Position numbers and translations under genes: made by a program. This document shows positions 3,231-61,603 of a stretch of DNA of 64,000 nucleotides, in pieces. This DNA comes from Vicinamibacterales bacterium (GTDB lineage: Bacteria; Acidobacteriota; Vicinamibacteria; Vicinamibacterales; CAVVIG01). The stretch's first letter is position 1. Every line of letters begins with the position of its first letter. Under the pieces are notes generated by a model. The model was given only the letters and a program-made list of their open reading frames with translations, searched no databases and was not told the origin of the DNA. The stretch covers positions 4,734 through 68,733 of the forward strand of contig DASSGK010000567.1 of NCBI GenBank assembly GCA_035693505.1, written 5' to 3'.

Positions 3231-5519
3231 CTAATTTCTGAGGGGCTTGCCGGTTTTCAACGTGTGCTGAATACGCTCCAGCGTCTTGCGCTCTCCGCAC
3301 AGTTTCAGGAACGCTTCGCGCTCCAGCTCGAGGATGTACTCCTCGCTGACCGTCGTCTGGTGCGGCAGTGCACCGCCCGATAACACGTTCGCGAGCGCGC
3401 GGCCGACGACCGCGTCGTGATCGCTGATGCGGCCGGCTCTCCATGCCAGGTGGACGCCGAGCTTGATCGCCGCGAGCACGGTCTGGCCGCCGGCCAGGAT
3501 CGCGGTCCGCCGCGCGGGACGCTGGTAGCCTTCCTGCACGCGCTCGAGCGCATACGCCTTGGCGTCGGCCATGAGGCGCTCGCGGTTCATCGTCACGCGA
3601 TCGGCGTCGCCCAGGAAACCGAGCCGTCTTGCATCCGCGGCGCTCGTCGACACTTTCGCAAATCCGATGGTCTCGAAGGCCTGCTGAACGAACGGCAGCA
3701 GGTCGGGGTGGTTGGCCGGCAGTCCGTGAACCGCTCGCGCCAGCATTTCCTTGGTGCCGCCGCCGCCGGGTATCAGGCCGACGCCGACTTCGACGAGTCC
3801 GATATAACTTTCCGCGGCAGCCTGGACTCGGTCGGCGTGCAATGCCATCTCGCAGCCGCCGCCGAGCGTCAGCCCGGCGGGTGCGACGATCACGGGAACG
3901 TCGGCGTAGCGCAGCGCCTGGGTCGCGCCCTGGAACGTGCGAATCATCAGGTCGATCTCGTCCCAGTTGCCCTCCTGCGCCTCCAGCAGGAGCAGCATCA
4001 GGTTGGCGCCCGCGGAGAAGTTCGCCGCGTCGTTTCCGACGACGAGCGCCGCGAAGTTCGCCGCAGCCTCTTTTACGCCGGCGTGGATCATTTGAATCTG
4101 ATCGCCGCCGATGGCGTTCATCTTCGCGTGGAACTCGAGGGCCAGGACGCCGTCGCCGAGGTCGACGAGGCTCGCACCGGAGTTCTTGCGGACGATCCTG
4201 TTCCGTTCACGCGCGGACTTCAGGATCCACAGGTCGCTCGGCTGAAGCGTTCCGTGATCGCTCGGCTGAAGCCTTCGCGCTACATTCGATGCTGAGGAGC
4301 CTTCCTGTAGCGCGAAGGCTTTAGCCGAGCGTTCGTCGGTGGCTTGAGCCGAGCGTTCACTGCCTGTGAGGGTCGAGCGCCCGAGCGCCTCGATGATCGC
4401 GAACGGGCCCAGCTCCCAGCCGAATCCCCATCGCATCACCCGGTCCACATCGTCAGGCGAGTGCGCGATGTCGGGAGTGACTTTGGCCGTGTACTCGAGG
4501 GTCGGACCCAGTGTCTCGCGCAGGAATTCGCCGACCTTGTCCTTGCCGTGATAGAGCGACTTGATCCGTTCGCCGGTGTCTTCGATCGACTTTCCGGCCT
4601 CGATGGATGCCAGGCGCGCCGGTTGCTTCGGCCGGTACTCGAGCGTCGCGGGATCGAGCGTCAGGATCTCGCTGCCATCCTTTGTCTTTACGCGCTTGTA
4701 GAAGCCTTGACCGGCTTTCTCGCCGATCATCCCCTTCTCGATCATCGCCTTCACGAACGCCGGCAGCTCGAAGCCGAGGTTCTTCGCGACGTGCGCCAGG
4801 ATGTCGATGCCGGCAATGTCCATCGTCCGGAACGTGGCGCTTTTGGGGCGCCCGAGCGCCGGCCCGGTGATCGCGTCAATTTCCTCGATCGTGTAGCGGC
4901 CGCTCTCGAGCGCCTTCAGCGTCAGCATCACGCCATACAGTGCGAGATGGTTGCCGATGAAGTTCGGCGTGTCCTTCGCGAGCACCACGCCTTTGCCGAG
5001 TCGATGATCCGTGAACTGTGAGACGCGTTCGACGACGTCCGGATCGGTTTCGGCCGTCGGGATGACTTCGACGAGATGAAGGTAGCGGGGCGGGTTGAAG
5101 AAGTGCGTGCCGAGCCAGTGTCGTCGAAAATCGTCGCTTCGCCCTTCAGCGAGCGTCGCAATCGGAATTCCGGACGTGTTCGACGACACGATCGTGCCGG
5201 GACGACGAACGGCGTCGACGCGCTCGAGCAGCGTGCGCTTGATGTCGAGCTGTTCGACGACTGCTTCCGTGATCCAGTCCACCGACGCCAGCGCCGCGAA
5301 GTCTGTGTCGAACCCACCTATCGTGATGCGGGTGGCGGTGTCGCCTGTAAAGAATGGATCGGGCTTGAGCGACCGCGCGCGCTTGAGCCCCTCGCGCGCC
5401 ACGTCCGCGGTCAGGTCGAGCAGCATCACCGGGACGCCCGCATTCGCGAAGTGCGCGGCGATCTGCGCGCCCATCGTTCCGGCTCCGAGAACCGCCACCG
5501 ATCGGATCGTGTGCGCCAT
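3231..5519 (-). CDS. fused 3-hydroxyacyl-CoA dehydrogenase / enoyl-CoA hydratase (FadB/FadN-like)
   Basis: N-terminal VAVLGAGTMGAQIAAH Rossmann motif and HAD domain, plus a C-terminal crotonase fold (GGGCEMALHAD). A 42-codon repeat-derived insert sits in the interdomain linker. Confidence 0.9.
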   Translation of the reverse strand: MAHTIRSVAVLGAGTMGAQIAAHFANAGVPVMLLDLTADVAREGLKRARSLKPDPFFTGDTATRITIGGFDTDFAALASVDWITEAVVEQLDIKRTLLERVDAVRRPGTIVSSNTSGIPIATLAEGRSDDFRRHWLGTHFFNPPRYLHLVEVIPTAETDPDVVERVSQFTDHRLGKGVVLAKDTPNFIGNHLALYGVMLTLKALESGRYTIEEIDAITGPALGRPKSATFRTMDIAGIDILAHVAKNLGFELPAFVKAMIEKGMIGEKAGQGFYKRVKTKDGSEILTLDPATLEYRPKQPARLASIEAGKSIEDTGERIKSLYHGKDKVGEFLRETLGPTLEYTAKVTPDIAHSPDDVDRVMRWGFGWELGPFAIIEALGRSTLTGSERSAQATDERSAKAFALQEGSSASNVARRLQPSDHGTLQPSDLWILKSARERNRIVRKNSGASLVDLGDGVLALEFHAKMNAIGGDQIQMIHAGVKEAAANFAALVVGNDAANFSAGANLMLLLLEAQEGNWDEIDLMIRTFQGATQALRYADVPVIVAPAGLTLGGGCEMALHADRVQAAAESYIGLVEVGVGLIPGGGGTKEMLARAVHGLPANHPDLLPFVQQAFETIGFAKVSTSAADARRLGFLGDADRVTMNRERLMADAKAYALERVQEGYQRPARRTAILAGGQTVLAAIKLGVHLAWRAGRISDHDAVVGRALANVLSGGALPHQTTVSEEYILELEREAFLKLCGERKTLERIQHTLKTGKPLRN
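4233..4358. repeat. 126-nt compound palindromic element embedded in frame in the fadB-like CDS
   Basis: Inner arms are 4259-4283 (CGCTCGGCTGAAGCCTTCGCGCTAC) and 4307-4331 (GTAGCGCGAAGGCTTTAGCCGAGCG), with one mismatch. Outer arms are CGCTCGGCTGAAGCG and TTGAGCCGAGCG. The element is 126 nt, exactly 42 codons. Confidence 0.9.
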
Positions 5520-26748: not shown

Positions 26749-28262
26749 CCTGGGCCGAGCTTCACGGTGTGCTCCGCGAATGCGGACTCGTCCCCGCGGG
26801 GGACGCGCCGCGAGGCGAGGCCGGTGCCCGCGCCGTGACCGGCGTCGCCTACGATTCGCGCGCGGTTGCTCCCGGGTATGTCTTCGTCGCGCTCAAGGGA
26901 CAGCACGCCGATGGCACGGCGTTCGTCAGGCAGGCGATCGATCTTGGCGCCGCAGCGATCGTGTCTGAACAGGCGCCGTCAGGCGACGTCGAGGCGCCGT
27001 GGGCGATCGTGAAAGACGCGCGTCTTGCGCTCGCGCAACTCGCCGTCGCGTTCTACGGCAACCCGAGCCGCGAGATGCGGGTGATCGGGATCACCGGCAC
27101 GAACGGCAAGACGACGACGGCATATCTGGTCGCTGCGATTTTCGATGCCGCAGGCATCCGGTGCGGAATCCTCGGCACGGTCGGTTATCGGATCGGCGAC
27201 GAAGTGCGCGAATCGACGAGGACGACGCCTGAAGCGCCGGACGTGCAGGCGCTGCTGCGCGAGATGGTCGATCGACGCTGCGGTGCGTGCGCGATGGAAG
27301 TGTCGTCGCACGCCCTGTCGCTGCACCGCGTCAGCGGCATCACCTTCGCGGCGGGCGTCTTCACGAACCTCACGCGCGATCACCTCGACTTCCATGCCGA
27401 CATGGACGACTACTTCCGCGCGAAGCGCCGGCTGTTCGAGATGCTGCCGCGCGACGCACCGAGCCTGATCAACCTCGACGATCCGCGCGGCGCCAGCCTG
27501 CTCGAAGCTGGCGGCCGGCCGACGACGTACGCGATTCACCGGGCCGCGGACGTCATGCCGGGACCGCTCTCGTTCTCACTCGGGGGCTTGTCGTTCGATG
27601 TTCGAACGCCGCGCGGGCCGCTGCGGGTTGTGTCGAAGCTCGTGGGTCGACCCAACGTCTACAACATTCTCGCGGCTGTCTCGGTGGCCAACGCGCTCGA
27701 CATTCCGCTGGACGCGATTGAGCGGGGACTCCGATCGCTCGAGGGCGTCCCGGGCCGGTTTCAGGTCGTCTCCGACACCAAGGACGAAGTCACCGTCGTC
27801 GTCGACTACGCGCATACCGATGACGCCCTTCGCAATCTGCTCGAGACCGCACGGCCACTGGCGCACGGGCGGCTCATTACGGTGTTCGGGTGCGGCGGCG
27901 ATCGCGACCGGACGAAGCGTCCGTTGATGGGCGCCGTCGCAGGGCGCCTGAGCGACCTCATCGTGATCACGTCGGACAACCCCCGCAGCGAGGATCCGAA
28001 CCGGATCATCGAGGAAATCCGCCGCGGGATCACGCCGGACACCCGGAGGGACAGCTCGCAGGGCGTGCTGACGATCGTCGACCGGCGCGCGGCGATTGCC
28101 AAAGCGATCGAGGTCGCCGGTTCCGGCGACGTCGTGCTCGTCGCCGGCAAGGGACACGAGAAGTACCAGGTGATCGGCGATCGCACGCTGCCATTCGACG
28201 ACGTTGCGGTCGCGCGTGAGGCGTTGGCGCGGCGGCGGACCAAGCCGAGCGTCGCGAAATGA
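26745..28262 (+). CDS. murE: UDP-N-acetylmuramoyl-L-alanyl-D-glutamate--2,6-diaminopimelate ligase
   Basis: GITGTNGKTTT P-loop, a DNPR motif (meso-DAP type), and dcw position. Confidence 0.95.
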   Translation: MTWAELHGVLRECGLVPAGDAPRGEAGARAVTGVAYDSRAVAPGYVFVALKGQHADGTAFVRQAIDLGAAAIVSEQAPSGDVEAPWAIVKDARLALAQLAVAFYGNPSREMRVIGITGTNGKTTTAYLVAAIFDAAGIRCGILGTVGYRIGDEVRESTRTTPEAPDVQALLREMVDRRCGACAMEVSSHALSLHRVSGITFAAGVFTNLTRDHLDFHADMDDYFRAKRRLFEMLPRDAPSLINLDDPRGASLLEAGGRPTTYAIHRAADVMPGPLSFSLGGLSFDVRTPRGPLRVVSKLVGRPNVYNILAAVSVANALDIPLDAIERGLRSLEGVPGRFQVVSDTKDEVTVVVDYAHTDDALRNLLETARPLAHGRLITVFGCGGDRDRTKRPLMGAVAGRLSDLIVITSDNPRSEDPNRIIEEIRRGITPDTRRDSSQGVLTIVDRRAAIAKAIEVAGSGDVVLVAGKGHEKYQVIGDRTLPFDDVAVAREALARRRTKPSVAK

Positions 28263-29713
28263 CGATGGCTTCGGCGGTGCTGCACCTGATGGCGGGCTGG
28301 GTCGCGACGCAGATGGACGGGTCGATCGTGGCCGGCGAGCGCGCGCGGGAGTTTACCGATGTTTCGATCGACAGCCGCACGGTGAAGGCGGGCGAGTTGT
28401 ACGTCGGCATCCGCGGCGAACGCTTCGACGGCGCTGAGTTCGCGTCGGCCGCGATCGAGGCCGGTGCCGCCGGCGTCGTCGTGCCGCGTGGATGGAGCGC
28501 GAACGCTTCAGCCGAGCGAGATGCCGTGACAGGTAGCGCGAAGGCTTTAGCCGAGCGGGGCGTCGTCGTGATCGAGGTCGACGATACGACCGCGGCGCTG
28601 CAGGCGCTGGCGCACGGAGTCCGGCGCGAGGCGGGCACGAAGGTCGTGGCGATCACCGGGAGCGCCGGCAAGACCACGACCAAGGAAGTGACGAGCGAGT
28701 TTCTCGAGACGCGGTACCGCGTGGTCCGCAACCGGGGGAATTTCAACAATCACATCGGCTTGCCGCTGTCGCTGATTGAACTGAGGCTGCGGCCGGAGGT
28801 CGCCGTCGTCGAGCTGGGAATGAATCACGCGGGCGAAATCAGCACGCTGGTGCGAGTTGCCGAGCCGGACGTCCGTGTGTGGACGAACGTCGGCGAAGCG
28901 CACCTGGGCTTCTTTGCGTCGATCGATGCCATCGCCGATGCCAAGGCGGAGATTCTCGAGAGAGCCGACGCTTCGACGCTGCTCGTCGCGAATGCCGACG
29001 ATCCCAGGATCAGCGCGCGGATCGGTGCGTTTCCCGGCCGCGTCGTCACGTTCGGAATCGACTCCGACGCCGACGTGCGTGCCCGCGACGTCGTGGACCG
29101 CGGCATCGAGGGGACCAGCGCGCGGGTGAGCGCGCGGAGCGGAGTCGTGGAGATCTCCACGCCGCTCGTCGGAAAAGCCAATCTCGCGAACATCCTCGCG
29201 GCCACGGCCGTCGCCGAGGAGTTCGGTGTTCCACTGGCGGAGATCTCGGCGAAGGCAGCCGGCCTTCGGCCGGCCGCGCACCGCGGCGAAATCGTCCGCC
29301 TTGCCAGCGGCGTGACCGTCGTCGACGACAGCTACAACGCGAACCCGACGGCGACCAGGAAGGCCCTCGAGGTGCTGGCATCGGGACGAGCATCACGCCG
29401 GATCGCGGTCATCGGCGAGATGCTCGAGCTCGGAGACGGCTCGGCGGAACTCCATGCCGGCGTTGGACGAGCGGCGGCGAAAGCCGGCGTGAACCTGCTC
29501 TTCGCGGTCGGGGGCGCTCCAGCGAAGGCGCTGGCTGATGCCGCCGTTCAATCAGGCATGACGGCAGCGAGCGTGCAGTACTTTGCGACGAGCGACGACG
29601 CTGCGCTCGCCGTCGTGGCGTCGGTGAAGGCCGGCGATCTCGTGCTGGTGAAGGGATCGCGTGGCGTGAAGACGGATCGTGTCGTCGAGCGCCTGAAGGC
29701 GGAGCGTGGCTGA
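28259..29713 (+). CDS. murF: UDP-N-acetylmuramoyl-tripeptide--D-alanyl-D-alanine ligase
   Basis: ITGSAGKTTTKE P-loop and MurF order in the dcw cluster. The N-terminal domain carries a repeat-derived insert of about 20 codons. Confidence 0.95.
   Translation: MTMASAVLHLMAGWVATQMDGSIVAGERAREFTDVSIDSRTVKAGELYVGIRGERFDGAEFASAAIEAGAAGVVVPRGWSANASAERDAVTGSAKALAERGVVVIEVDDTTAALQALAHGVRREAGTKVVAITGSAGKTTTKEVTSEFLETRYRVVRNRGNFNNHIGLPLSLIELRLRPEVAVVELGMNHAGEISTLVRVAEPDVRVWTNVGEAHLGFFASIDAIADAKAEILERADASTLLVANADDPRISARIGAFPGRVVTFGIDSDADVRARDVVDRGIEGTSARVSARSGVVEISTPLVGKANLANILAATAVAEEFGVPLAEISAKAAGLRPAAHRGEIVRLASGVTVVDDSYNANPTATRKALEVLASGRASRRIAVIGEMLELGDGSAELHAGVGRAAAKAGVNLLFAVGGAPAKALADAAVQSGMTAASVQYFATSDDAALAVVASVKAGDLVLVKGSRGVKTDRVVERLKAERG
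28497..28557. repeat. Repeat element inside murF (a degenerate copy plus an exact 25-mer copy)
   Basis: 28533-28557 is GTAGCGCGAAGGCTTTAGCCGAGCG, identical to 4307-4331. 28497-28518 is GCGCGAACGCTTCAGCCGAGCG, a degenerate direct copy. Translated in frame as SANASAERDAVTGSAKALAERG. Confidence 0.9.
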
Positions 29714-30801: not shown

Positions 30802-30871
30802 GGGCTGGGGACTTAGGGGCTAGGGACTAGGGATTTAGGGGCTAGGGCTAAGGGCTGGGGGCTAGGGCTAG
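30799..30871 (+). repeat. G-rich heptamer array (about 10 units of GGGNCTA) filling the mraY-murD spacer
   Basis: TAGGGGCTGGGGACTTAGGGGCTAGGGACTAGGGATTTAGGGGCTAGGGCTAAGGGCTGGGGGCTAGGGCTAG. It has ten G3-5 tracts and six CTAG tetramers, and starts on the mraY TAG stop. No inverted partner is present. Confidence 0.9.
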
Positions 30872-34941: not shown

Positions 34942-36423
34942 GTGCTAGGGAAAACTAGGCACGTTCATTTTGTCGGGATCGGCGGGATCGGGATGAGCGG
35001 CATCGCCGAGCTGCTCGCGAACCTTGGGTACGTCGTGAGCGGATCGGATGCGAAGGGATCCGCGGTCACCGATCGGCTGAAGACGCTCGGCATCCGGGTT
35101 GACGTCGGACACGACGCGGCAAATGTCGGCGATGCCGACGTCGTGGTCATCTCGTCGGCGGTGCGGCCGACGAACCCGGAAGTCATCGAAGCGGGGCGCC
35201 GGCAGGTACCCGTGATTCCCCGGGCCGAGATGCTCGCCGAGCTCATGCGGCTGCGCTTTTCGATTGCGGTGGCCGGGGCACACGGCAAAACGACGACGAC
35301 CTCGATGATCGCGCTGGTGCTGGAGCGGGCGGGGCTGGATCCGACAGCGGTGATTGGCGGACGTCTGAGAGCGTTCGGCAGCAACGCGCGGCTGGGGCAG
35401 GGCGAGTTCATGGTCGCCGAGGCGGACGAGAGCGACCGATCGTTTTTGAAACTGTTTCCGACGATTGCGGTGATTACGAACATCGACCACGAACACCTCG
35501 AGAACTACGGCGGCTTCGAGGACCTGCAGCAGGCCTTCGTCGACTTCGCCAACAAGACGCCGTTCTACGGCGGCGTGGTCGCGTGTCTGGACGACCGGAA
35601 CCTGGCGTCCGTGCTGCCGCGGATGACTCGTCGCGTCACGACATACGGTCTCGACTCGCCGACGGCCGACGTCCTCGGTACCGGCGTGACCCTGGCGCCG
35701 ATGAGCGTGTCGGCGACGGTCATGCGGCGGGATCGCGTGGCTCGTGGTTCCACCTATTCGACAGGCTCAGGGCAGGCAAGCTCACCGCGAGCGGAGTCCG
35801 CTGCTGCTGAGCGGCCCCTTGTGCCGCTTGGGACGCTGACTCTCGCGGTTCCGGGGCGTCACAACCTGCTGAACGCCCTCGCGGCGATCGCGGTCGGCCT
35901 GGAACTGGGCCTGTCGTTCGAACGGATCGCATCCGGGTTGAAGGATTTCCGCGGCGCCGAACGGCGCTTCGACGTTCGCGGTGAACCGCGCGGGATTCTC
36001 GTGGTCGACGATTACGGACATCACCCAACCGAGATCGCTGCGGTGCTCGCCGCCGCGCGAACGCTGGGCCGCCGCATCGTGGTCGCGTTCCAGCCGCACC
36101 GGTATTCGCGGACAGCGTCGCTGATGGACTCCTTCGGTCCAGCGCTCTCCGACGCCGATCACGTCGTCTTGACCGACATCTATTCCGCCGGCGAGGAACC
36201 GATCGCCGGCGTGACTCTCGACACGCTGGGCGCGGCGATCCGGAAGAGCGTCGCGGCTCCCGTCGATCTGGTGCCGCGCCTCGACGATGTCGTGGCCGCG
36301 ATTGTGCGCATCGTGAAACCGGGCGATCTCGTCATCACGCTCGGCGCCGGGTCGATCGGGAACGTGCCCGATCGGCTGATTGCGGCGCTGGAGAGCGGAG
36401 CCCCGGCAGGAGTCGAATCGTGA
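34942..36423 (+). CDS. murC: UDP-N-acetylmuramate--L-alanine ligase
   Basis: HFVGIGGIGMSGIAE, GAHGKTTTTSM P-loop, PGRHNLLNALAA. A low-complexity insert of about 25-30 codons (GSTYSTGSGQASSPRAESAAAERPLVP) precedes the PGRHN motif. Confidence 0.95.
   Translation: MLGKTRHVHFVGIGGIGMSGIAELLANLGYVVSGSDAKGSAVTDRLKTLGIRVDVGHDAANVGDADVVVISSAVRPTNPEVIEAGRRQVPVIPRAEMLAELMRLRFSIAVAGAHGKTTTTSMIALVLERAGLDPTAVIGGRLRAFGSNARLGQGEFMVAEADESDRSFLKLFPTIAVITNIDHEHLENYGGFEDLQQAFVDFANKTPFYGGVVACLDDRNLASVLPRMTRRVTTYGLDSPTADVLGTGVTLAPMSVSATVMRRDRVARGSTYSTGSGQASSPRAESAAAERPLVPLGTLTLAVPGRHNLLNALAAIAVGLELGLSFERIASGLKDFRGAERRFDVRGEPRGILVVDDYGHHPTEIAAVLAAARTLGRRIVVAFQPHRYSRTASLMDSFGPALSDADHVVLTDIYSAGEEPIAGVTLDTLGAAIRKSVAAPVDLVPRLDDVVAAIVRIVKPGDLVITLGAGSIGNVPDRLIAALESGAPAGVES
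35757..35830. repeat. GCTCAGGGCAGGC-type repeat element embedded in murC
   Basis: TTCGACAGGCTCAGGGCAGGC (35757-35777) shares TTCGAC-N3-GCTCAGGGCAGGC with the reverse complement of 44113-44134. A small central palindrome GCGGAGTCCGC lies at 35791-35801. Confidence 0.7.
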
Positions 36424-37268
36424 GCGCCGTCGCCGCTCAGACCGATCGCCGATTCCGGAGGGCGCACGTGAAACCAGCGCGCCGGAAGAAGAGCTGGCGC
36501 GGCTTGCTCGTGCCGTTGCTGATCTGGGTCACCCTGACGCCGGCGTTGATCTTCGGCGCCTACCGCAGCGTGGCGATGGCCGCGCACGCGCACGTCCTGC
36601 AGGTCGACAAGATCGCGGTGCACGGCAACGAGCGGCTGTCGAAGGAAGACGTGATCGCGGTGCTCAGCGGGCTGCGCGGCGAGAACATCATCTGGACCGA
36701 CCTCGAGCACTGGCGCACCCGGCTGAAAGCGTCCCCCTGGGTGCGGGACGCCGTGATGCGCCGTTCGCTGCCGTCGACGGTCGACGTCTTCGTCTCCGAG
36801 CGCGAGCCGATCGGCATCGGCCGCATCCACTCGGACATGTACCTCGTCGACGAGCGGGGCGTCATCATCGATCAGTACGGTCCCCAGTACGCGGATCTGG
36901 ACCTGCCGATCATCGACGGCCTCTCGGCGGCGCCCGGCGAGAACGGCGCGCTGACCGATGAAGGCCGCGCGGATCTCGCCGCACGGGTGATCGCCGCCGT
37001 GAAATCGAAGCCGGCCATCGCCAAGCGCCTGTCGCAGGTCGACGTGTCCGATGCGCACAACGCCTCGGTGATCCTCAACAGCGATCCCGCGATGATTCAG
37101 CTCGGCGAGGACCAGTTCCTCGCACGGCTGCAGTCGTACCTCGATCTGGCGCCCGCGTTGCGCGAGCGCGTGACCGACATCGACTACGTCGATCTGCGGT
37201 TCGACGATCGCATCTACGTAAGACCGACCAAAGGAAGTCAGAAGTTACAAGGTAGAAGGCAGAAGTAA
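36420..37268 (+). CDS. ftsQ: cell division protein FtsQ
   Basis: N-terminal TM segment (LLVPLLIWVTLTPALIFGAY), POTRA-like region (IAVHGNERLSKEDV), and dcw position. The GTG start overlaps the murC stop (GTGA). Confidence 0.9.
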   Translation: MSAVAAQTDRRFRRAHVKPARRKKSWRGLLVPLLIWVTLTPALIFGAYRSVAMAAHAHVLQVDKIAVHGNERLSKEDVIAVLSGLRGENIIWTDLEHWRTRLKASPWVRDAVMRRSLPSTVDVFVSEREPIGIGRIHSDMYLVDERGVIIDQYGPQYADLDLPIIDGLSAAPGENGALTDEGRADLAARVIAAVKSKPAIAKRLSQVDVSDAHNASVILNSDPAMIQLGEDQFLARLQSYLDLAPALRERVTDIDYVDLRFDDRIYVRPTKGSQKLQGRRQK

Positions 37269-37288
37269 GAAGGCAGAAGTTAGAACGC
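37233..37288 (+). repeat. Purine-rich heptamer array (8 units of AGAAGKN) spanning the ftsQ stop codon
   Basis: GGAAGTC AGAAGTT ACAAGGT AGAAGGC AGAAGTA AGAAGGC AGAAGTT AGAACGC. It encodes the FtsQ tail KGSQKLQGRRQK and contains its TAA stop. AAGTCAGAAGTTA is shared with 53511-53523. Confidence 0.85.
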
Positions 37289-37310
37289 AGCGCAGGCCTG
37301 CGGGTCTGCC

Positions 37311-42405: not shown

Positions 42406-42789
42406 TCAGTCGCCCAGAATCATCACCTGCGCCATCGCCAGCGCGTCGGTGTGAGTAATAGTCAACAACGAGGATCGTCCGCCCATCGTCGCGAATCGGC
42501 GGGCGGCGCCGCCATGCAACCGTAGTTGCGGAGGACCGCCGCGGCGGACCACTTCGACGTCACGCCAGAGGACGCCCTGCGAGTGGCCGGTCCCGAGCGC
42601 CTTCATTGCCGCTTCCTTCGAGGCGAAGCGACCCGCGAAATGAATCGCCGCCTCCTTCCGGCGCATGCAGTAGGCGATCTCGCCTTCCGTGAAGATGCGC
42701 TGCAGGAACCGTGTCCCGTACCGATCGATCGTGCTGACGATGCGGGGGATCTCGGTGAGGTCGATACCCAGGCCGATGATGTTTGGCAT
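42406..42789 (-). CDS. acpS: holo-[acyl-carrier-protein] synthase
   Basis: IIGLGIDLTEIPRI, FTEGEIAYC, FAGRFASKEAAMKALG and LTITHTD are the classic AcpS pattern. Confidence 0.95.
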   Translation of the reverse strand: MPNIIGLGIDLTEIPRIVSTIDRYGTRFLQRIFTEGEIAYCMRRKEAAIHFAGRFASKEAAMKALGTGHSQGVLWRDVEVVRRGGPPQLRLHGGAARRFATMGGRSSLLTITHTDALAMAQVMILGD

Positions 42790-42807
42790 GATCAGGAATC
42801 AGAACCG

Positions 42808-43599
42808 ATGAATTCACAGCCTAACGACGGTTTCGAGTGGGTGCAAGCGGCCGGCGGCCCGGCGCTGGTGTGTGTGCCACTCCGGCCGTTTGCCGATCAT
42901 CTCTTTACGACGCGCGATTGGGCGCTCGGGTCCCCCGCCGGCGGCGCGGACGCGGATTGGCAGCCGGTGGCGGCCTCGCTCGGCGTCGATGCGGCTCACC
43001 TCGTCCGATTGCACCAGGTCCACGGCGCCGCGGTCGTCGTCAGGCGCGCGGGAGACGGCCGGCCAGTCCAGCCGCGTCCCAATGCCGACATCGTTGTCTC
43101 AGACGACGCGTCGGTGGCGCTGGCCATCCAGACGGCGGACTGCGTGCCTTTGCTGATCGCGGACCGCGCGACCGGTGTGGTAGCGGCAGCGCACGCGGGG
43201 TGGCGCGGCCTTGCCGCCGGGGTTCCAGGAGTGACGGTCGTCGCCCTCACGCACGAGTTCGGAAGCGCGCCCGCGAACTTGATCGCCGCGGTCGGCCCTT
43301 CGATCAGCGCCGAGCGCTACGAGGTCGGGGAGGACGTGCGAGCGCATTTTCTCGCGTCGGGATGGCCCGCCGCCCGGCTCGAACGATGGTTTCCGTCCGC
43401 CACGCGTCAGGGTCACTGGCTGTTCGATGGATGGGAATCGGTGCGCGATCAGTTGCTGTCGGCGGGCGTTCCTGGTTCCAGCATCTATTCGGCGGCGCTC
43501 TGCACGTCCGCCAATCCCGATCTGTTCTGCTCGTACCGCCGCGATGGCAAAGGCGCCGGGCGGATCGCGGCTGCTATTCGACGATCGTCGCTCGGCTAA
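42808..43599 (+). CDS. pgeF: peptidoglycan editing factor PgeF (YfiH/DUF152 laccase-domain protein)
   Basis: LHQVHGAAVVV, TADCVPLL, HAGWRG and CTSANPDLFCSYRRDG motifs. Start is the ATG at 42808; the track ORF start at 42526 is antisense to acpS. Confidence 0.9.
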   Translation: MNSQPNDGFEWVQAAGGPALVCVPLRPFADHLFTTRDWALGSPAGGADADWQPVAASLGVDAAHLVRLHQVHGAAVVVRRAGDGRPVQPRPNADIVVSDDASVALAIQTADCVPLLIADRATGVVAAAHAGWRGLAAGVPGVTVVALTHEFGSAPANLIAAVGPSISAERYEVGEDVRAHFLASGWPAARLERWFPSATRQGHWLFDGWESVRDQLLSAGVPGSSIYSAALCTSANPDLFCSYRRDGKGAGRIAAAIRRSSLG

Positions 43600-43613
43600 A
43601 GCCTTCGCGCTAC
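43589..43613. repeat. Third exact copy (reverse orientation) of the 25-mer element, containing the pgeF stop codon
   Basis: CGCTCGGCTAAAGCCTTCGCGCTAC is the reverse complement of GTAGCGCGAAGGCTTTAGCCGAGCG. The TAA at 43597-43599 in the GGCTAAAGCC loop is the pgeF stop. Confidence 0.9.
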
Positions 43614-44932: not shown

Positions 44933-45045
44933 TGAATTCTACACGTTGTGATGACCGTGTCCGCCTTCGCCGCCTTGCGGCTTCGGCGCGACACCTTCGC
45001 GTGGGCTTGCCACGCCGAAGCTCGCGCGGCAAGCGCGAGCGAAGG

Positions 45046-45118
45046 TGGGCCCACCAGGATTCGAACCTGGAACAGGCCGGTTATGAGCCGGCGGCTCTAA
45101 CCGTTGAGCTATGGGCCC
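45046..45118 (-). tRNA. tRNA-Met (anticodon CAT), elongator-type or possibly tRNA-Ile2
   Basis: The reverse complement folds as a cloverleaf: GGGCCCA TA GCTC AACGGTTA GAGC C GCCGG CTCATAA CCGGC CTGTT CCAGG TTCGAAT CCTGG TGGGCCC A. The G1-C72 pair argues against an initiator tRNA. CCA is not fully encoded (ACCt). Confidence 0.9.
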
Positions 45119-45122
45119 TTGG

Positions 45123-45206
45123 GAAGTATGAAGGAAGAAGTTAGAAGTGAGAAGGAAGAACTTTCCCGCTTCCACTTCTAACTTCTTCCTTCTCCCTTCT
45201 ACCTTC
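45123..45206. repeat. GAAGKNA heptamer hairpin immediately after rpoD (probable terminator)
   Basis: Perfect 20-bp stem between GAAGGAAGAAGTTAGAAGTG (45130-45149) and CACTTCTAACTTCTTCCTTC (45173-45192). Both arms are tandem heptamers. The pyrimidine arm runs into the rpoD stop codon. Confidence 0.85.
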
Positions 45207-52041: not shown

Positions 52042-53538
52042 ATGACGCCAGCTGAAACCCTCACCCTCGCCGCATATTTCTTCGTCGTCATCGTGCTCGC
52101 CATCTACGGATGGCACCGGTACTACCTCGTGTACCTCTACATGAGTAACCGGGACAAAGAGCCGCAACTCGGCCGCCCGCTCGATCCGCTGCCGATCGTG
52201 ACCATCCAGCTTCCGCTCTACAACGAGATGTACGTCGCGGAGCGCCTGATCGACGCGGTGTGCGCGATCGACTATCCGCGGCACCTGCTCGAGATTCAGG
52301 TACTGGACGACTCGACCGACGAGACGCGCAATATCGCCGAGCTGGCCGCCCGCCGCTACGCCGACGAAGGCATCGATATCAAATACATTCACCGTATCGA
52401 TCGCGTCGGATTCAAGGCCGGCGCGCTCGAGGCCGGGCTGAAGATCGCCCGCGGGGAATTCGTCGGCATTTTCGACGCTGACTTCATCCCGACCACCGAT
52501 TTCCTGACAAGGCTGCTGCCGCATTTCGCCGATCCGAAGGTCGGGATGGTGCAGGCGCGCTGGGGGCACATCAACCAGGACTACTCGCTGCTCACGAAGA
52601 TCCAGGCGATCCTGCTCGACGGCCATTTCATTCTCGAACACGGCGGCCGCAACCGCGGCGGGCGTTTCTTCAATTTCAACGGCACCGCCGGCGTGTGGCG
52701 GCGAACCGCAATCGACGAGGCTGGCGGGTGGCAGCACGACACCCTCACCGAAGATCTCGATCTGAGCTACCGCGCGCAGCTCGCGGGCTGGCAGTTCGTG
52801 TTCGTCCCGGGCCTGATTGCGCCCGCGGAAGTGCCCGTCGAAATGAACGCCTTCAAGTCGCAGCAGCACCGCTGGGCCAAGGGTTCCATCCAGACCTGCC
52901 GGAAGCTGCTGCCGCGGATCCTGAAATCGAACCTGCCGATCGGCGTGAAGGCCGAGGCGTTCTTTCACCTGACGGCGAACTTTAACTACATCCTGATGTG
53001 CATCCTGTCCATCCTGATGTTCCCGTCGATGGTGATCCGCTACAACATGGGCTGGTACGAGATGATCCTCATCGACGTCCCCCTGTTCTTCGCCGCGACC
53101 TTTTCGTTCTGCAATTTCTACATGGTGTGTCAGCGTGAACTGCACAAGGACTGGGTGTCGCGCCTGAAGTACGTGCCGTTCCTGATGTCGGTCGGAATCG
53201 GGCTGTCGGTCAACAACACCCGCGCCGTGTTCGAAGCGCTGTTCAACAAGAAAAGCGAATTTACGCGGACGCCCAAGTACCACATCGAAGGCGACGGCGA
53301 CGAGTGGGTCGGCAAGAAGTACCGGCAGTCGGTTGCCGTGCAGCCGCTGGTCGAGCTGGCGCTGGGCCTGTACTTCACGTGGACGGTCTTCTACGCGCTC
53401 GCCAACGGCATCTATGCGACCATCCCGTTCCTGGTCCTCTTCCAGGTGGGTTTCCTCTACACGGGCCTGCTCTCGATCGTGCAGCAGTACGCGAGCTCGG
53501 TCGGTCTTGAAAGTCAGAAGTTAGAGGTTAGAAGTTAG
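52042..53538 (+). CDS. membrane-embedded processive-type GT2 (cellulose-synthase-like / CslA-MGlcDG-synthase-like)
   Basis: N-terminal TM, QLPLYNE, VLDDSTDET, FDADF, TEDLDLSYR and the QQHRWAKG (QxxRW) motif, plus C-terminal TM helices. Confidence 0.85.
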   Translation: MTPAETLTLAAYFFVVIVLAIYGWHRYYLVYLYMSNRDKEPQLGRPLDPLPIVTIQLPLYNEMYVAERLIDAVCAIDYPRHLLEIQVLDDSTDETRNIAELAARRYADEGIDIKYIHRIDRVGFKAGALEAGLKIARGEFVGIFDADFIPTTDFLTRLLPHFADPKVGMVQARWGHINQDYSLLTKIQAILLDGHFILEHGGRNRGGRFFNFNGTAGVWRRTAIDEAGGWQHDTLTEDLDLSYRAQLAGWQFVFVPGLIAPAEVPVEMNAFKSQQHRWAKGSIQTCRKLLPRILKSNLPIGVKAEAFFHLTANFNYILMCILSILMFPSMVIRYNMGWYEMILIDVPLFFAATFSFCNFYMVCQRELHKDWVSRLKYVPFLMSVGIGLSVNNTRAVFEALFNKKSEFTRTPKYHIEGDGDEWVGKKYRQSVAVQPLVELALGLYFTWTVFYALANGIYATIPFLVLFQVGFLYTGLLSIVQQYASSVGLESQKLEVRS

Positions 53539-53543
53539 AAGTG
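53509..53543 (+). repeat. AGAAGTT heptamer array bridging the GT2 stop and the DUF362 start
   Basis: GAAAGTC AGAAGTT AGAGGTT AGAAGTT AGAAGTG. The TAG stop (53536-53538) and the GTG start (53541) both lie inside heptamer units. Confidence 0.85.
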
Positions 53544-54719
53544 AAGGCGTCGAAGTCGAAAGTTGCGGTCATCCGCGTTACTCCCGACACCATCCTTTCA
53601 GACATCGATCGGCTGATCGACCTGGCCGGCGTCTCCACGGCGCTCGCGCCGGGAAAGACGACGATCCTGAAAGACAACATCTCCTGGCACTTTCCGTTTC
53701 CCGCCGCCAACACGACGCCGTGGCAGCTCGAGGGCACCATCCAGGCGCTGGCCAGACGGGGCTACCGCGATCAGGTCTGCGTTCAGAACAAGACCGTCGT
53801 CACTAACGCGTTCAAGGGCGAAGATCTCAACCACTACGTCCCGATCTTCAAGAAGTACGAGATTCCCGTTCTCTACAACTTCAAGGACGAGGACATGACG
53901 TGGGTGCGGTTTCAGCCGAAAGCGCGGATGCGCGTGCTGGATCGCATTTTTCCCGAGGGCATCCAGATCCCCGACTACTTCTTCGGCAAGAACATCGTCC
54001 ACCTGCCGACGACCAAGTGCCACATCTACACGACGACCACGGGGGCGATGAAGAACGCGTTCGGCGGCCTGCTGAACACGCGGCGGCACTACACGCACTC
54101 GTGGATACACGAGACGCTCGTCGATCTTCTCGCGATTCAGAAGGAAATCCACGCCGGGCTGTTCGCGATCATGGACGGGACGACCGCCGGCAACGGCCCG
54201 GGACCGCGCACGATGTATCCCGTCGTGAAGAACGTCATGCTGGCATCGGCCGACCAGGTCGCGATCGATGCGGTGTCGGCCAAGATGATGGGTTTCGATC
54301 CGATGTCGCTGGACTACATCCGTCTCGCGCACGAAGACGGACTCGGCGTCGGCGATCCCAGGGACATCGAGATTGCCGGAGATGTTGACGCCGCGCGCGA
54401 GAACTGGAAGTTTCACGTCGGCAAGAACCTGGTGCGGGTCGGCGGCGGCGATCTGATCTGGTTCGGTCCTCTGAAGCGCTTTCAAAAGCTGTTCTTCCAC
54501 ACGCCCCTGGTCAACGGTTTCATCCTGGCGAGCGACGTCTACCACGACTTCTATCGATGGCCGCTGGTCGACCGCAAGGTGTTCGAGCGCTGGTGCGAGA
54601 CGACCCCCTGGGGGCAGATGTTCCTGCGCTACGCCCAATCCGGACCCCAGGGCGTGCCGATCGACGCGCTCGTTCCGCCCCTCGACACGACGGTTTCCCC
54701 CTCCACGCGAATCCACTGA
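53541..54719 (+). CDS. DUF362-domain protein
   Basis: 392 aa. KVAVIRV...ILKDNISW...TTKCHIYTTTTGAMKNAFGG...DGTTAGNGPGP...ASADQVAIDAVSAKMMGF matches my recollection of the DUF362 family pattern. Confidence 0.7.
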   Translation: MKASKSKVAVIRVTPDTILSDIDRLIDLAGVSTALAPGKTTILKDNISWHFPFPAANTTPWQLEGTIQALARRGYRDQVCVQNKTVVTNAFKGEDLNHYVPIFKKYEIPVLYNFKDEDMTWVRFQPKARMRVLDRIFPEGIQIPDYFFGKNIVHLPTTKCHIYTTTTGAMKNAFGGLLNTRRHYTHSWIHETLVDLLAIQKEIHAGLFAIMDGTTAGNGPGPRTMYPVVKNVMLASADQVAIDAVSAKMMGFDPMSLDYIRLAHEDGLGVGDPRDIEIAGDVDAARENWKFHVGKNLVRVGGGDLIWFGPLKRFQKLFFHTPLVNGFILASDVYHDFYRWPLVDRKVFERWCETTPWGQMFLRYAQSGPQGVPIDALVPPLDTTVSPSTRIH

Positions 54720-60068: not shown

Positions 60069-60080
60069 ATGCGTTTCCAG

Positions 60081-60352
60081 GGAGCGGAGGGTACGGAGGA
60101 AACGGAATCACACAGAGGAACGGAGGAGCAGAGGACGAACGGAGCAGGATGTGCGCGACCGGCGGCCGGCGAAGCCGGCCTCGCACCGGGACAGAACGAA
60201 CGACGCAAAGCAAAACACACGGACTCAAGTTTTTGCTTTGCGTCGTTCGTTCTATCCCGGTGGCCCGCGTTGCGGGCCGGTCGCGCACGCATCTCTTCTC
60301 TGCTCGTCTCTGCTGCTCCGCTGCTCTGTGTGATCCCGTTCCCTCCGTCTCC
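60081..60352. repeat. 272-nt compound palindrome (cruciform / MITE-like) between hutI and the cyclodeaminase gene
   Basis: Apical perfect 23-bp stem (60193-60215 with 60231-60253). A 7-bp CACCGGG/CCCGGTG stem. Two side hairpins (GGCCGGC-GAA-GCCGGCC and GGCCCGC-GTT-GCGGGCC). A 12-bp GTGCGCGACCGG/CCGGTCGCGCAC stem. Imperfect outer arms of about 65-70 nt share AACGGRATCACACAGAG. Confidence 0.85.
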
Positions 60353-61603
60353 TCAGTTACCAATGACGACCTTGCCGCGTTTGATCACGGCACGTATCGT
60401 GTCGGCGCCGACGCGGATCAAGTTGATGGCGGGGCCGTGGACGACGACGGCGTCCATCTGCTTGCCCAGTTCCAGGCTGCCGATGCGATCCTGGCGGCCC
60501 AGCGAACACGCCGCGTTGATGGTCGCCGCGACCAGTGCCTCTTCGAAGGTGAGGTGCATGCCGAAGCAGGCCAGCGTCATCGCAAACGGGATCGACGGCG
60601 AGTAGCCGGCGCCAGGGTTGACGTCGGTGGCCAGCGCCACGGCGACGCCGCTCGCCATCAGCATGCGCGCCGGCGCAAAGCGTCCCAGCTTGAGATAGAA
60701 CGACGCGATTGGCAACAGCGTGGCGACCACGCCGGAGGCCGCCAGGCCAGCCGCATTCACCTCCTCGATGAAGATCAAGTGATCCGCTGATCGCGCACCG
60801 ACTTCAGCCGCGACGACCGATCCGCCGCTGGACGCGAACTCGTCGGCGTGAATTCGCGGCGCGAGACCCGCGGCGCGGCCGGCTTGCAGGATCTCGCGCG
60901 ATTCATCCGGCGTGAATACGCCTGTCTCGCAGAACACGTCGCACGATTCCGCCGAGCCTTCGCGGGCGACGGCCGGAATCATTTCGTGCACGACGAGATC
61001 CACGTAATCGCGACGCCGATGGCGATACTCGACCGGCACTTCGTGTGCGCCCATGAATGTCGGCGATATCTCAATCGGATGCGTCGCGGCGAGCATCCGA
61101 ATCGTTCGCAGCATCTTCAGCTCGCCGACGGTCGTGAGCGCGTAGCCGCTCTTGGCTTCGCACGTCGTCGTGCCGCAGCGCAGCATCTCGTCCAGTCGCT
61201 GTCTTGTGACAGCCGCGAGATCCTCGCCAGACGCAGCACGCGTCGCCTTCACGCTGCCGACGATCCCACCTCCCTCGGCGGCGATTTCAGCATAGGTGGC
61301 GCCGGCGAGGCGACGACGGAGTTCGTTGCGCCGATCGCCGGCGAAGACGACATGCGTGTGGGGATCCACGAAGCCGGGGACGACGGCACCGCCTTCCGCG
61401 TCGACGACAAGAGCAGCGTCAGCCAGAGTGCCGTTGCGGCGCCAGTCCGCCTCGTCGCCCACGAAGACGATCGTTCCGCGATGAGCGGCGATGACGGCCT
61501 TCGGCCTGGAGACCGCGTCTGCCTGGCGCGGTCCGATTCGCGGCGCAGGACCGGCGCAGGTGAGGACCTCCGATGTGTTGTGGATCAGGAAATCGGCGAC
61601 CAC
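60353..61603 (-). CDS. hutI: imidazolonepropionase
   Basis: Amidohydrolase fold with PGFVDPHTHVVFAG, SGYAL, ADEF and DVNPG motifs. GTG start. Confidence 0.9.
   Translation of the reverse strand: MVADFLIHNTSEVLTCAGPAPRIGPRQADAVSRPKAVIAAHRGTIVFVGDEADWRRNGTLADAALVVDAEGGAVVPGFVDPHTHVVFAGDRRNELRRRLAGATYAEIAAEGGGIVGSVKATRAASGEDLAAVTRQRLDEMLRCGTTTCEAKSGYALTTVGELKMLRTIRMLAATHPIEISPTFMGAHEVPVEYRHRRRDYVDLVVHEMIPAVAREGSAESCDVFCETGVFTPDESREILQAGRAAGLAPRIHADEFASSGGSVVAAEVGARSADHLIFIEEVNAAGLAASGVVATLLPIASFYLKLGRFAPARMLMASGVAVALATDVNPGAGYSPSIPFAMTLACFGMHLTFEEALVAATINAACSLGRQDRIGSLELGKQMDAVVVHGPAINLIRVGADTIRAVIKRGKVVIGN

Follow-up and report, generated by a model that had tools for sequence, protein, structure and literature searches.

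Repetitive extragenic palindromes (REPs) with a GTAG or CGTC tag have been described inside genes in several bacterial phyla, often as dimers or groups encoding 20-30 aa, and these intragenic copies have been argued to fall in loops or linkers of the proteins (Di Nocera et al., 2013, PMC3733652). The GTAG repeats of that survey came from Proteobacteria, Cyanobacteria, Chloroflexi and the PVC group, and not from Acidobacteria. The Rickettsia palindromic elements (RPEs) are selfish DNA in protein-coding genes, which are CGTC-tagged and have no dedicated transposase (PMC3733652). REPs can be associated with REP-associated tyrosine transposases (RAYTs) and occur as inverted pairs that form the replicating unit, called REPINs (Bertels and Rainey, 2011, PMC3116915). 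A literature search yielded no description of palindromic repeats in Vicinamibacteria. Here we analyzed a stretch of 64,000 nt (the window) from a Vicinamibacterales bacterium of the Acidobacteriota (contig DASSGK010000567.1, positions 4,734 to 68,733), in which two direct copies of a 25-nt repeat lie in frame within the essential gene murF. The 25-mer is probably one unit of a REP-type, GTAG-headed interspersed repeat family of Vicinamibacterales/Acidobacteriota, with a history at the murF site as proposed below.

The murF gene is part of the dcw cluster (murE-murF-mraY-murD...), and its open reading frame (ORF) is identical to NCBI HET6960086.1, the MurF of a Vicinamibacterales metagenome-assembled genome (MAG). 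The gene and its repeat features were as follows.

28259..29713, plus strand: murF (UDP-MurNAc-tripeptide--D-Ala-D-Ala ligase), 484 aa, from the ORF list; Pfam Mur_ligase, Mur_ligase_M and Mur_ligase_C
28494..28518, plus strand: unit 1, degenerate, GGAGCGCGAACGCTTCAGCCGAGCG; 22/25 with a GGAG head; encodes (W)SANASAER
28519..28532, plus strand: spacer of 14 nt, AGATGCCGTGACAG; unit and spacer together make 39 nt, or 13 codons
28533..28557, plus strand: unit 2, canonical, GTAGCGCGAAGGCTTTAGCCGAGCG; encodes (G)SAKALAER

The two units are direct, with a start-to-start distance of 39 nt, and both are in frame. The encoded peptide SANASAERDAVTGSAKALAER stands immediately before VVVIEVDD, and the first bases of unit 1 overlap the Trp-Ser-Ala codons. 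A first-pass annotation of this DNA had noted that 28533-28557 is identical to 4307-4331, which a direct reading bore out (25/25), and that about 20 codons are added just before the V-x-V-D-D strand, in agreement with the position of the peptide and with the alignment to solved MurFs given below. The degenerate direct copy that it placed upstream is real, but its extent of 28497-28518 was too short by three bases and is best given as 28494-28518.

The repeat is not confined to murF. A pattern search of the window with up to three mismatches detected five copies, compared with 0.00 expected from 100 shuffles, and the 14-nt core GCTTNAGCCGAGCG occurred seven times against 0.4 expected.

4259-4283, minus strand: 25-mer copy, 1 mismatch
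4307-4331, plus strand: 25-mer copy, 0 mismatches
28494-28518, plus strand: 25-mer copy, 3 mismatches (murF unit 1)
28533-28557, plus strand: 25-mer copy, 0 mismatches (murF unit 2)
43589-43613, minus strand: 25-mer copy, 0 mismatches; its reverse complement is identical to 28533-28557

A total of 165 copies, taken from the window and from 109 pattern-scan loci on one-genome-per-species contigs, were aligned. Positions 1-25 were conserved and the flanks on either side were random, which defines a 25-nt unit with sharp edges. The search pattern constrained the 3' arm but left positions 1-7 free, and these were conserved at 56-83%. The head was GTAG in 74 copies, GGAG in 26 and GCAG in nine. The unit is laid out as GTAG, 3 bp, an internal loop, 3 bp and a TTYA loop, with the predicted fold ....(((...(((....)))..))), and forms the imperfect palindrome CGCGAAGGC-TTYA-GCCGAGCG. 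The GTAG head, the imperfect palindrome and the sharp bounds together indicate the anatomy of a REP. At gathering thresholds, tRNA-Met was the sole Rfam match in the whole window, and the 25-mer unit matched no Rfam family.

A scan of genome collections returned at least 109 loci, at least about 93 of them with a full unit, nearly all in MAGs of Acidobacteriota/Vicinamibacterales. These loci, from many MAGs, hold at least 131 unit copies, and the window itself has three loci per 64 kb. The few matches in other phyla fit the 18-mer seed alone and look like chance. Gene context was called from a stop-free frame spanning the cluster together with flanking third-position GC (GC3). Among 103 clusters, 67 (about 65%) were intergenic and 26 (about 25%) lay at a gene 3' end, where the upstream ORF runs into the unit and terminates there; the remaining class, in frame within an ORF, comprised 10 clusters (about 10%). 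At gene 3' ends the stop was usually the unit's own: a TAG within the GTAG head or, with the loop in reverse reading, its TAA/TGA. Stops are present in two of the six frames of the unit, and those frames occurred only at gene ends, while the intragenic class used all four stop-free frames (SAKALAER, VARRLQPS, RSAKAFAL and ARLKPSRY). The unit thus takes either orientation, uses four reading frames and lies for the most part outside genes, which indicates a DNA-level repeat and not a protein motif.

One of the ten intragenic clusters was a chance match in an unrelated genus. Seven intragenic hosts outside the window had clear Pfam domains, namely a GT4 glycosyltransferase, a BNR/sortilin-like protein, an amidohydrolase, a MobA-like transferase, a penicillin amidase, TruB (L084) and a Fer4/CCG oxidoreductase. 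The largest intragenic array seen, at L063:7081-7297, has six to eight units, depending on whether strict or core matches are counted, in an amidohydrolase-family ORF; all units but the first are co-oriented, and they encode about five DRSAEAFALQQR-like repeats past the catalytic domain.

The number of units at the murF site differed among close relatives. Within the single 90%-identity cluster that holds the window's protein, the following alleles were found.

P0246: 497 aa, three units; 100% identical outside the indel; on 20 contigs
Window MurF: 484 aa, two units
P0252, P0253 and P0255: 471 aa, one unit (GW-SAKALAER-GVVV); 92-97% identical
P0258: 469 aa, one unit (GW-SAKALAER-GVVV); 92-97% identical

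The site therefore behaves as an in-frame variable number tandem repeat (VNTR), with a period of 39 nt (13 codons) and one, two or three units among proteins that are 92-100% identical elsewhere. The steps were exact at the DNA level. L190, which is 99.6% identical to the window outside the site, has units 1, 2 and 3 in order with a spacer in each of the two gaps, and is exactly 39 nt longer. L200 carries one unit and is exactly 39 nt shorter; its identity to the window across 21.4 kb of the dcw cluster is 95.6%.

Units 2 and 3 end in the same 14-nt tail, GCTTTAGCCGAGCG, and the three-unit allele becomes exactly the window sequence once the 39 nt between these tails are taken out. In the other direction a simple duplication cannot yield the three-unit form, because its second spacer and third-unit head do not match the first spacer and second-unit head. 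The window allele is therefore most simply read as a contraction of the three-unit allele. Judged from these sequences, its two-unit state is best explained by a 39-nt deletion in an older three-unit array and not by a fresh insertion. In L198, 21-nt partial tandem duplications of the unit were found, which are a signature of slippage.

The following history of the site is probable. A unit took up residence, in an ancestor of the sub-clade, in a surface loop of MurF domain 1 that is permissive to insertion, and its original arrival would have been by transposition, RAYT-type or other. Since then the site would have acted as a small in-frame minisatellite, in which whole and partial units, and at times members of sister families in either orientation, were gained and lost, probably through recombination or replication slippage between unit copies. 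Survivors in an essential gene would be the stop-free variants with a length that is a multiple of three. The first-pass annotation had seen a mobile-looking repeat in murF, and strong selection for frame-preserving insertions. The repeat is indeed a dispersed one and its mobility is plausible, but the present state would reflect a deletion in place of a recent insertion, and the selection is better put as purifying selection that removes every out-of-frame or stop-bearing variant.

The structural context of the site agrees with a permissive loop. Solved MurF structures have a short turn at this place and show a gap of about 19 residues in the alignment, precisely at the units. In the AlphaFold2 (AF2) model of the window MurF (mean pLDDT 84; TM-score to 4QDI 0.79 query-normalised and 0.83 target-normalised), the insert lies in domain 1 between the strands VVVPR and VVIEV. 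Its pLDDT is 57-63, falling below 50 at residues 87-90, and it is flanked by confident strands at 72-76 and 103-107. The extra residues, about 20, are most likely a tolerated, flexible excursion of a surface loop without a catalytic role, and would be neutral.

Among 119 relatives with 73-97% identity, the segment over the same columns ranged from 9 to 42 residues. A unit-type 8-mer peptide was present at the site in 36 of the 119, compared with 1 of 121 elsewhere in the protein. Some close relatives are unit-free, including L110 (which looks empty), L192, P0043, P0049 and others. Relatives at 40-60% identity have a short loop, taken as ancestral, and zero units; the distant-relative set came from a metagenome scan and consists mostly of distant loci with an identity of at most 79%. 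In other lineages the same MurF loop carries other recurrent peptides, namely AGLKPRAT, VAQPFRAAD, SGRPWSAGGAEQAPPL and ITDNRSASDR (P0014, P0017, P0018, P0022, P0031, P0095-P0099 and L111). The AGLKPRAT of L111 is encoded by a sister palindrome of GTGG/GTAG type, GTGGCGCGGGGCTTCAGCCCTGC, in the opposite orientation, which indicates that several repeat families use this one site.

A further in-frame insertion was observed in murC (34942..36423). It is 57 nt long (35755-35811, YSTGSGQASSPRAESAAAE) and is missing from L200; tested as a repeat or palindrome, it had no second copy in the window or the loci and no folding signal (z = -0.9). A peptide 'SGQAS/SPR' resembling it was seen at the MurF site of P0091, P0111 and P0114.

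All three loci of the 25-mer in the window touch genes, namely murF, a FadN-like ORF and a PgeF-like ORF. It had gone unremarked in the first-pass annotation that the 4307-4331 copy itself lies within coding sequence and that the third perfect copy, 43589-43613, overlaps a stop codon. The features of these two loci are as follows.

4235..4355, both strands: cluster of four units of the murF-unit family, a 121-nt hairpin; in frame in the FadN-like ORF 3231..5519 (minus strand), at about aa 388-428
4235-4259 (partial) and 4259-4283, minus strand: cluster members
4307-4331 and 4331-4355 (partial), plus strand: cluster members
43589..43613, minus strand: single perfect unit, reverse; the PgeF/YfiH-like ORF 42526..43599 (plus strand) takes its final three codons and its TAA stop from this unit and ends in ...SSLG and the stop

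The FadN-like ORF encodes 762 aa with the Pfam domains 3HCDH_N, 3HCDH and ECH and is identical to the public protein P0121. Its units lie in the linker joining the 3-hydroxyacyl-CoA dehydrogenase and enoyl-CoA hydratase domains. The cluster has 50-nt inverted arms with a 21-nt loop between them, and its hairpin energy is -94.9 kcal/mol on the plus strand and -84.1 on the mRNA strand (z about -10 and -9). The FadN-like relatives are 699-771 aa long, and their linker is hypervariable and rich in unit-type peptides (RSAKAFAL, VARRLQPS). This linker is a second in-frame locus in the window, which behaves as the murF site does. In the PgeF/YfiH-like ORF the stop is the TAA in the loop of the unit, and the Pfam domain Cu-oxidase_4 spans residues 146-351 of 357.

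The window and all loci were searched for RAYT genes by tblastn, using an approximate E. coli RAYT and a RAYT rebuilt from L194, and by a regular expression for the HUH/Tyr motifs. The sole match was a 66-aa remnant at L036:1194-1394, about 2.8 kb from a unit and between two peptidase genes, in a gp6 MAG that also carries the murF-type unit. Pfam gave no match for this remnant alone, and a protein search with it detected four relatives named RayT by JGI. RAYT genes recovered from the clade are listed below.

L193:1176-1496: RAYT gene; pipeline call too short
L194:3001-3342: RAYT gene; pipeline call too short
L195:1454-1795: RAYT gene; pipeline call too short

After rebuilding to 173 aa, the L194 protein matched the NCBIfam family 'REP-associated tyrosine transposase' (NF047646) with 94.7 bits against a cut-off of 80 and passed Pfam Y1_Tnp. 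The inverted repeats flanking these RAYTs, GTAGGGCGACCCTTTCAGGGTCGCC, form REPtrons, and this repeat family is absent from the window. REP/RAYT systems exist in the clade. By its anatomy and distribution, the murF-type unit may have been mobilised in a similar manner.

Compared with the described systems, the closest likeness is to the GTAG REPs (PMC3733652). Their units are also short, 20-40 nt, and bear a terminal GTAG, with an imperfect, short-looped stem-loop of the kind predicted for the present unit; they are dispersed, mostly intergenic and near gene 3' ends, and occur as singletons, dimers and groups with coexisting sister families. A minority of them likewise lies in frame in genes, and the dimers or groups there add 20-30 aa to a loop or linker. 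The murF-type unit differs in its weak stem, in its excess of direct over inverted pairs and in that no RAYT flanked by it was found in the DNA searched, and the murF site adds a polymorphism of one, two and three units among near-identical strains. The resemblance to RPEs lies in palindromic repeats that are in frame in the genes of conserved functional proteins and add tolerated peptides. The 121-nt hairpin of the FadN-like ORF is similar in size and behaviour to RPE-1, a longer palindromic insertion, and TruB is decorated in both systems (L084 here; PMC3733652). However, RPEs are restricted to Rickettsia, carry a CGTC tag and have no sequence similarity to the present unit, which has a GTAG tag, is 25 nt long, belongs to Acidobacteriota and is mostly intergenic; it is RPE-like in behaviour and not a member of the RPEs.

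As in the REPIN/RAYT systems with their REPtrons (PMC3116915), the clade has GTAG palindromes and a RAYT flanked by inverted GTAG repeats, but its REPtron carries the GTAGGGCGACCCTTTCAGGGTCGCC family, and the murF-type unit does not occur predominantly as inverted doublets. The unit was not assigned to the REPINs; direct pairs predominate and the murF copies are direct, while the 4235-4355 cluster is inverted. With an in-frame VNTR or minisatellite the murF site shares the 39-nt period, the 13-aa steps and the one to three copies; it differs in that its unit belongs to a dispersed, genome-wide family and is not local to the gene, and in that its spacers differ. A miniature inverted-repeat transposable element (MITE) of 70-300 bp, with terminal inverted repeats (TIRs) and target-site duplications, does not fit a unit of 25 nt with random flanks and with neither TIR nor duplication in the position matrix. 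A CRISPR-like array was also rejected; the 25-nt repeats and 14-nt spacers are too short, there are only two or three units, and they are intragenic.

Several observations weigh against a REP-type family with the history proposed above. The hairpin of the unit is weak, with -3.8 kcal/mol as DNA (-7.7 as RNA) compared with -8.0 and -11.2 for sister families, and unit 1 of murF does not adopt this fold. Adjacent unit pairs were direct in 20 cases and inverted in 11 (seven head-to-head, four tail-to-tail), unlike classical REPINs. Neither the window nor some 1.3 Mb of further DNA contained a RAYT gene adjoining the unit GTAGCGCGAAGGCTTYAGCCGAGCG, and the RAYTs of the clade are flanked by another GTAG family (GTAGGGCGACCC...) and not by the murF unit. 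The census rests on an exact 18-mer seed, on loci among the matches listed and on heuristic gene calls. The two spacers of the three-unit murF allele agree at only 7 of 14 positions, and the array therefore did not come from one recent simple duplication. Lastly, the unit adjacent to VVIEVDD has a constant location and keeps 25, 24, 23, 23, 23, 20 and 20 of its 25 positions in seven relatives, whose murF genes are 78-91% identical in nucleotides outside the site and whose loops are otherwise unalignable. This unit is better kept than a neutral loop predicts, and its conservation calls for homogenisation or gene conversion, re-insertion, or constraint.

The same conservation would be expected if the murF unit had been co-opted and maintained for a function at the DNA or RNA level and so been kept from drifting. 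Such a unit might bind a RAYT-like or nucleoid protein, affect the processing or stability of the dcw mRNA, or act as a recombination signal; the SAKALAER-like peptide kept in 34 of the 119 relatives is consistent with this. However, the unit-free close relatives named above show that the unit is dispensable, and the two direct murF units had no folding excess over shuffled controls (z = -0.11 as DNA and -2.1 as RNA) and, as noted, no Rfam match. Gene conversion by the many genomic copies, or repeated insertion, would conserve the unit equally, and co-option of the murF unit is unlikely. That the unit is actively maintained in murF across lineages about 20% diverged in nucleotides, through either gene conversion from the genome-wide pool or a DNA- or RNA-level role in dcw, we regard as rather doubtful. 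If it were true, permissive loops of core enzymes (MurF, FadN-like, possibly MurC) would be standing hot spots of protein length polymorphism within populations, and, if gene conversion were the route, concerted evolution would reach essential coding sequence.

The 25-mer could also be a DNA uptake signal, like the uptake signal sequences (USS) and DNA uptake sequences (DUS), or another genome-wide signal, and not a REP derived from transposition. Uptake signals likewise lie within coding sequence, where they favour certain frames, and related species conserve them. The unit is nearly invariant (0-2 mismatches) over many different MAGs and intragenic in several frames, and a cognate transposase was not found in the DNA searched. 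Nevertheless, this explanation is very unlikely given the low density of about three loci per 64 kb, the REP-typical GTAG head and stem-loop, the REP-like direct and inverted clusters and gene 3'-end positions, and the bona fide RAYT with a sister GTAG family in the clade, a remnant of which is present in the unit-bearing MAG L036. It is highly improbable that MurF of this lineage inherited the segment as an ancestral feature at protein level, an Ala/Glu/Arg-rich helix whose resemblance to the other copies would be convergent low-complexity coding similarity. In the AF2 model the insert contains two short helices (79-86 and 94-99), and SAKALAER-like peptides recur in many relatives; but the unit is identical at 25 of 25 nucleotides to an antisense copy in another gene (4307-4331) and to a stop-codon copy (43589-43613), most copies are intergenic, and model confidence in the insert is low. 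Conservation of the segment at protein level across phyla, which the first-pass annotation had named as the result that would overturn its view, was not observed, as the segment is absent from solved MurFs and from relatives at 40-60% identity and varies in length in close ones; it is repeat DNA specific to this lineage. An assembly or binning artefact, in which repeat-induced misassembly put the units into murF, is barely credible. The window does come from a MAG and short repeats may confuse assemblers; however, independent assemblies from JGI, ENA, NCBI and Logan agree on the architecture of the site, with one, two or three units that are always in frame. The three-unit form alone is found on 20 contigs, and a 25-nt repeat is below typical assembly k-mer or read length.

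Other repeats were observed in the window. A second palindrome family with a GTAG/GTGG head, GTAGTGTCCGGCTTTAGCCGGAC, has three intergenic copies at 1613-1735, two in one orientation and one in the opposite, and has the GGCTTTAGCC core in common with the murF unit. Heptamer arrays of AGAAGTN type are present in intergenic regions at 37235-37294, 45117-45205 and 53511-53563, one of which abuts tRNA-Met (45044-45118); the array at 37268 differs from L200 by 14 nt (two heptamers). A CTAGGGA-like heptamer run lies in the mraY-murD interval (30814-30839) and is missing in the 95.6%-identical L200. At 60080-60361, 54-nt inverted arms (81% complementary) surround a nearly perfect 32-nt inverted repeat (60184-60215 / 60231-60262).

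In-frame GTAG REPs are already known in other phyla, and the murF site reveals no new mechanism. What stands out is that two essential or core enzymes are decorated in one 64-kb window and that a polymorphism of one, two and three units is documented. For practical work, segments of this kind can be a source of error when Mur ligases are annotated, placed in alignment-based phylogenies or submitted to structure prediction, and the 39-nt polymorphism could be a strain marker. With this family the Vicinamibacterales, which are abundant and little-studied soil Acidobacteriota, would join the lineages with GTAG-type REPs, essential genes included. The murF site offers a clean natural series, from empty through one, two and three units to sister families in either orientation, which shows dispersed repeats making in-frame length variation in a core enzyme.

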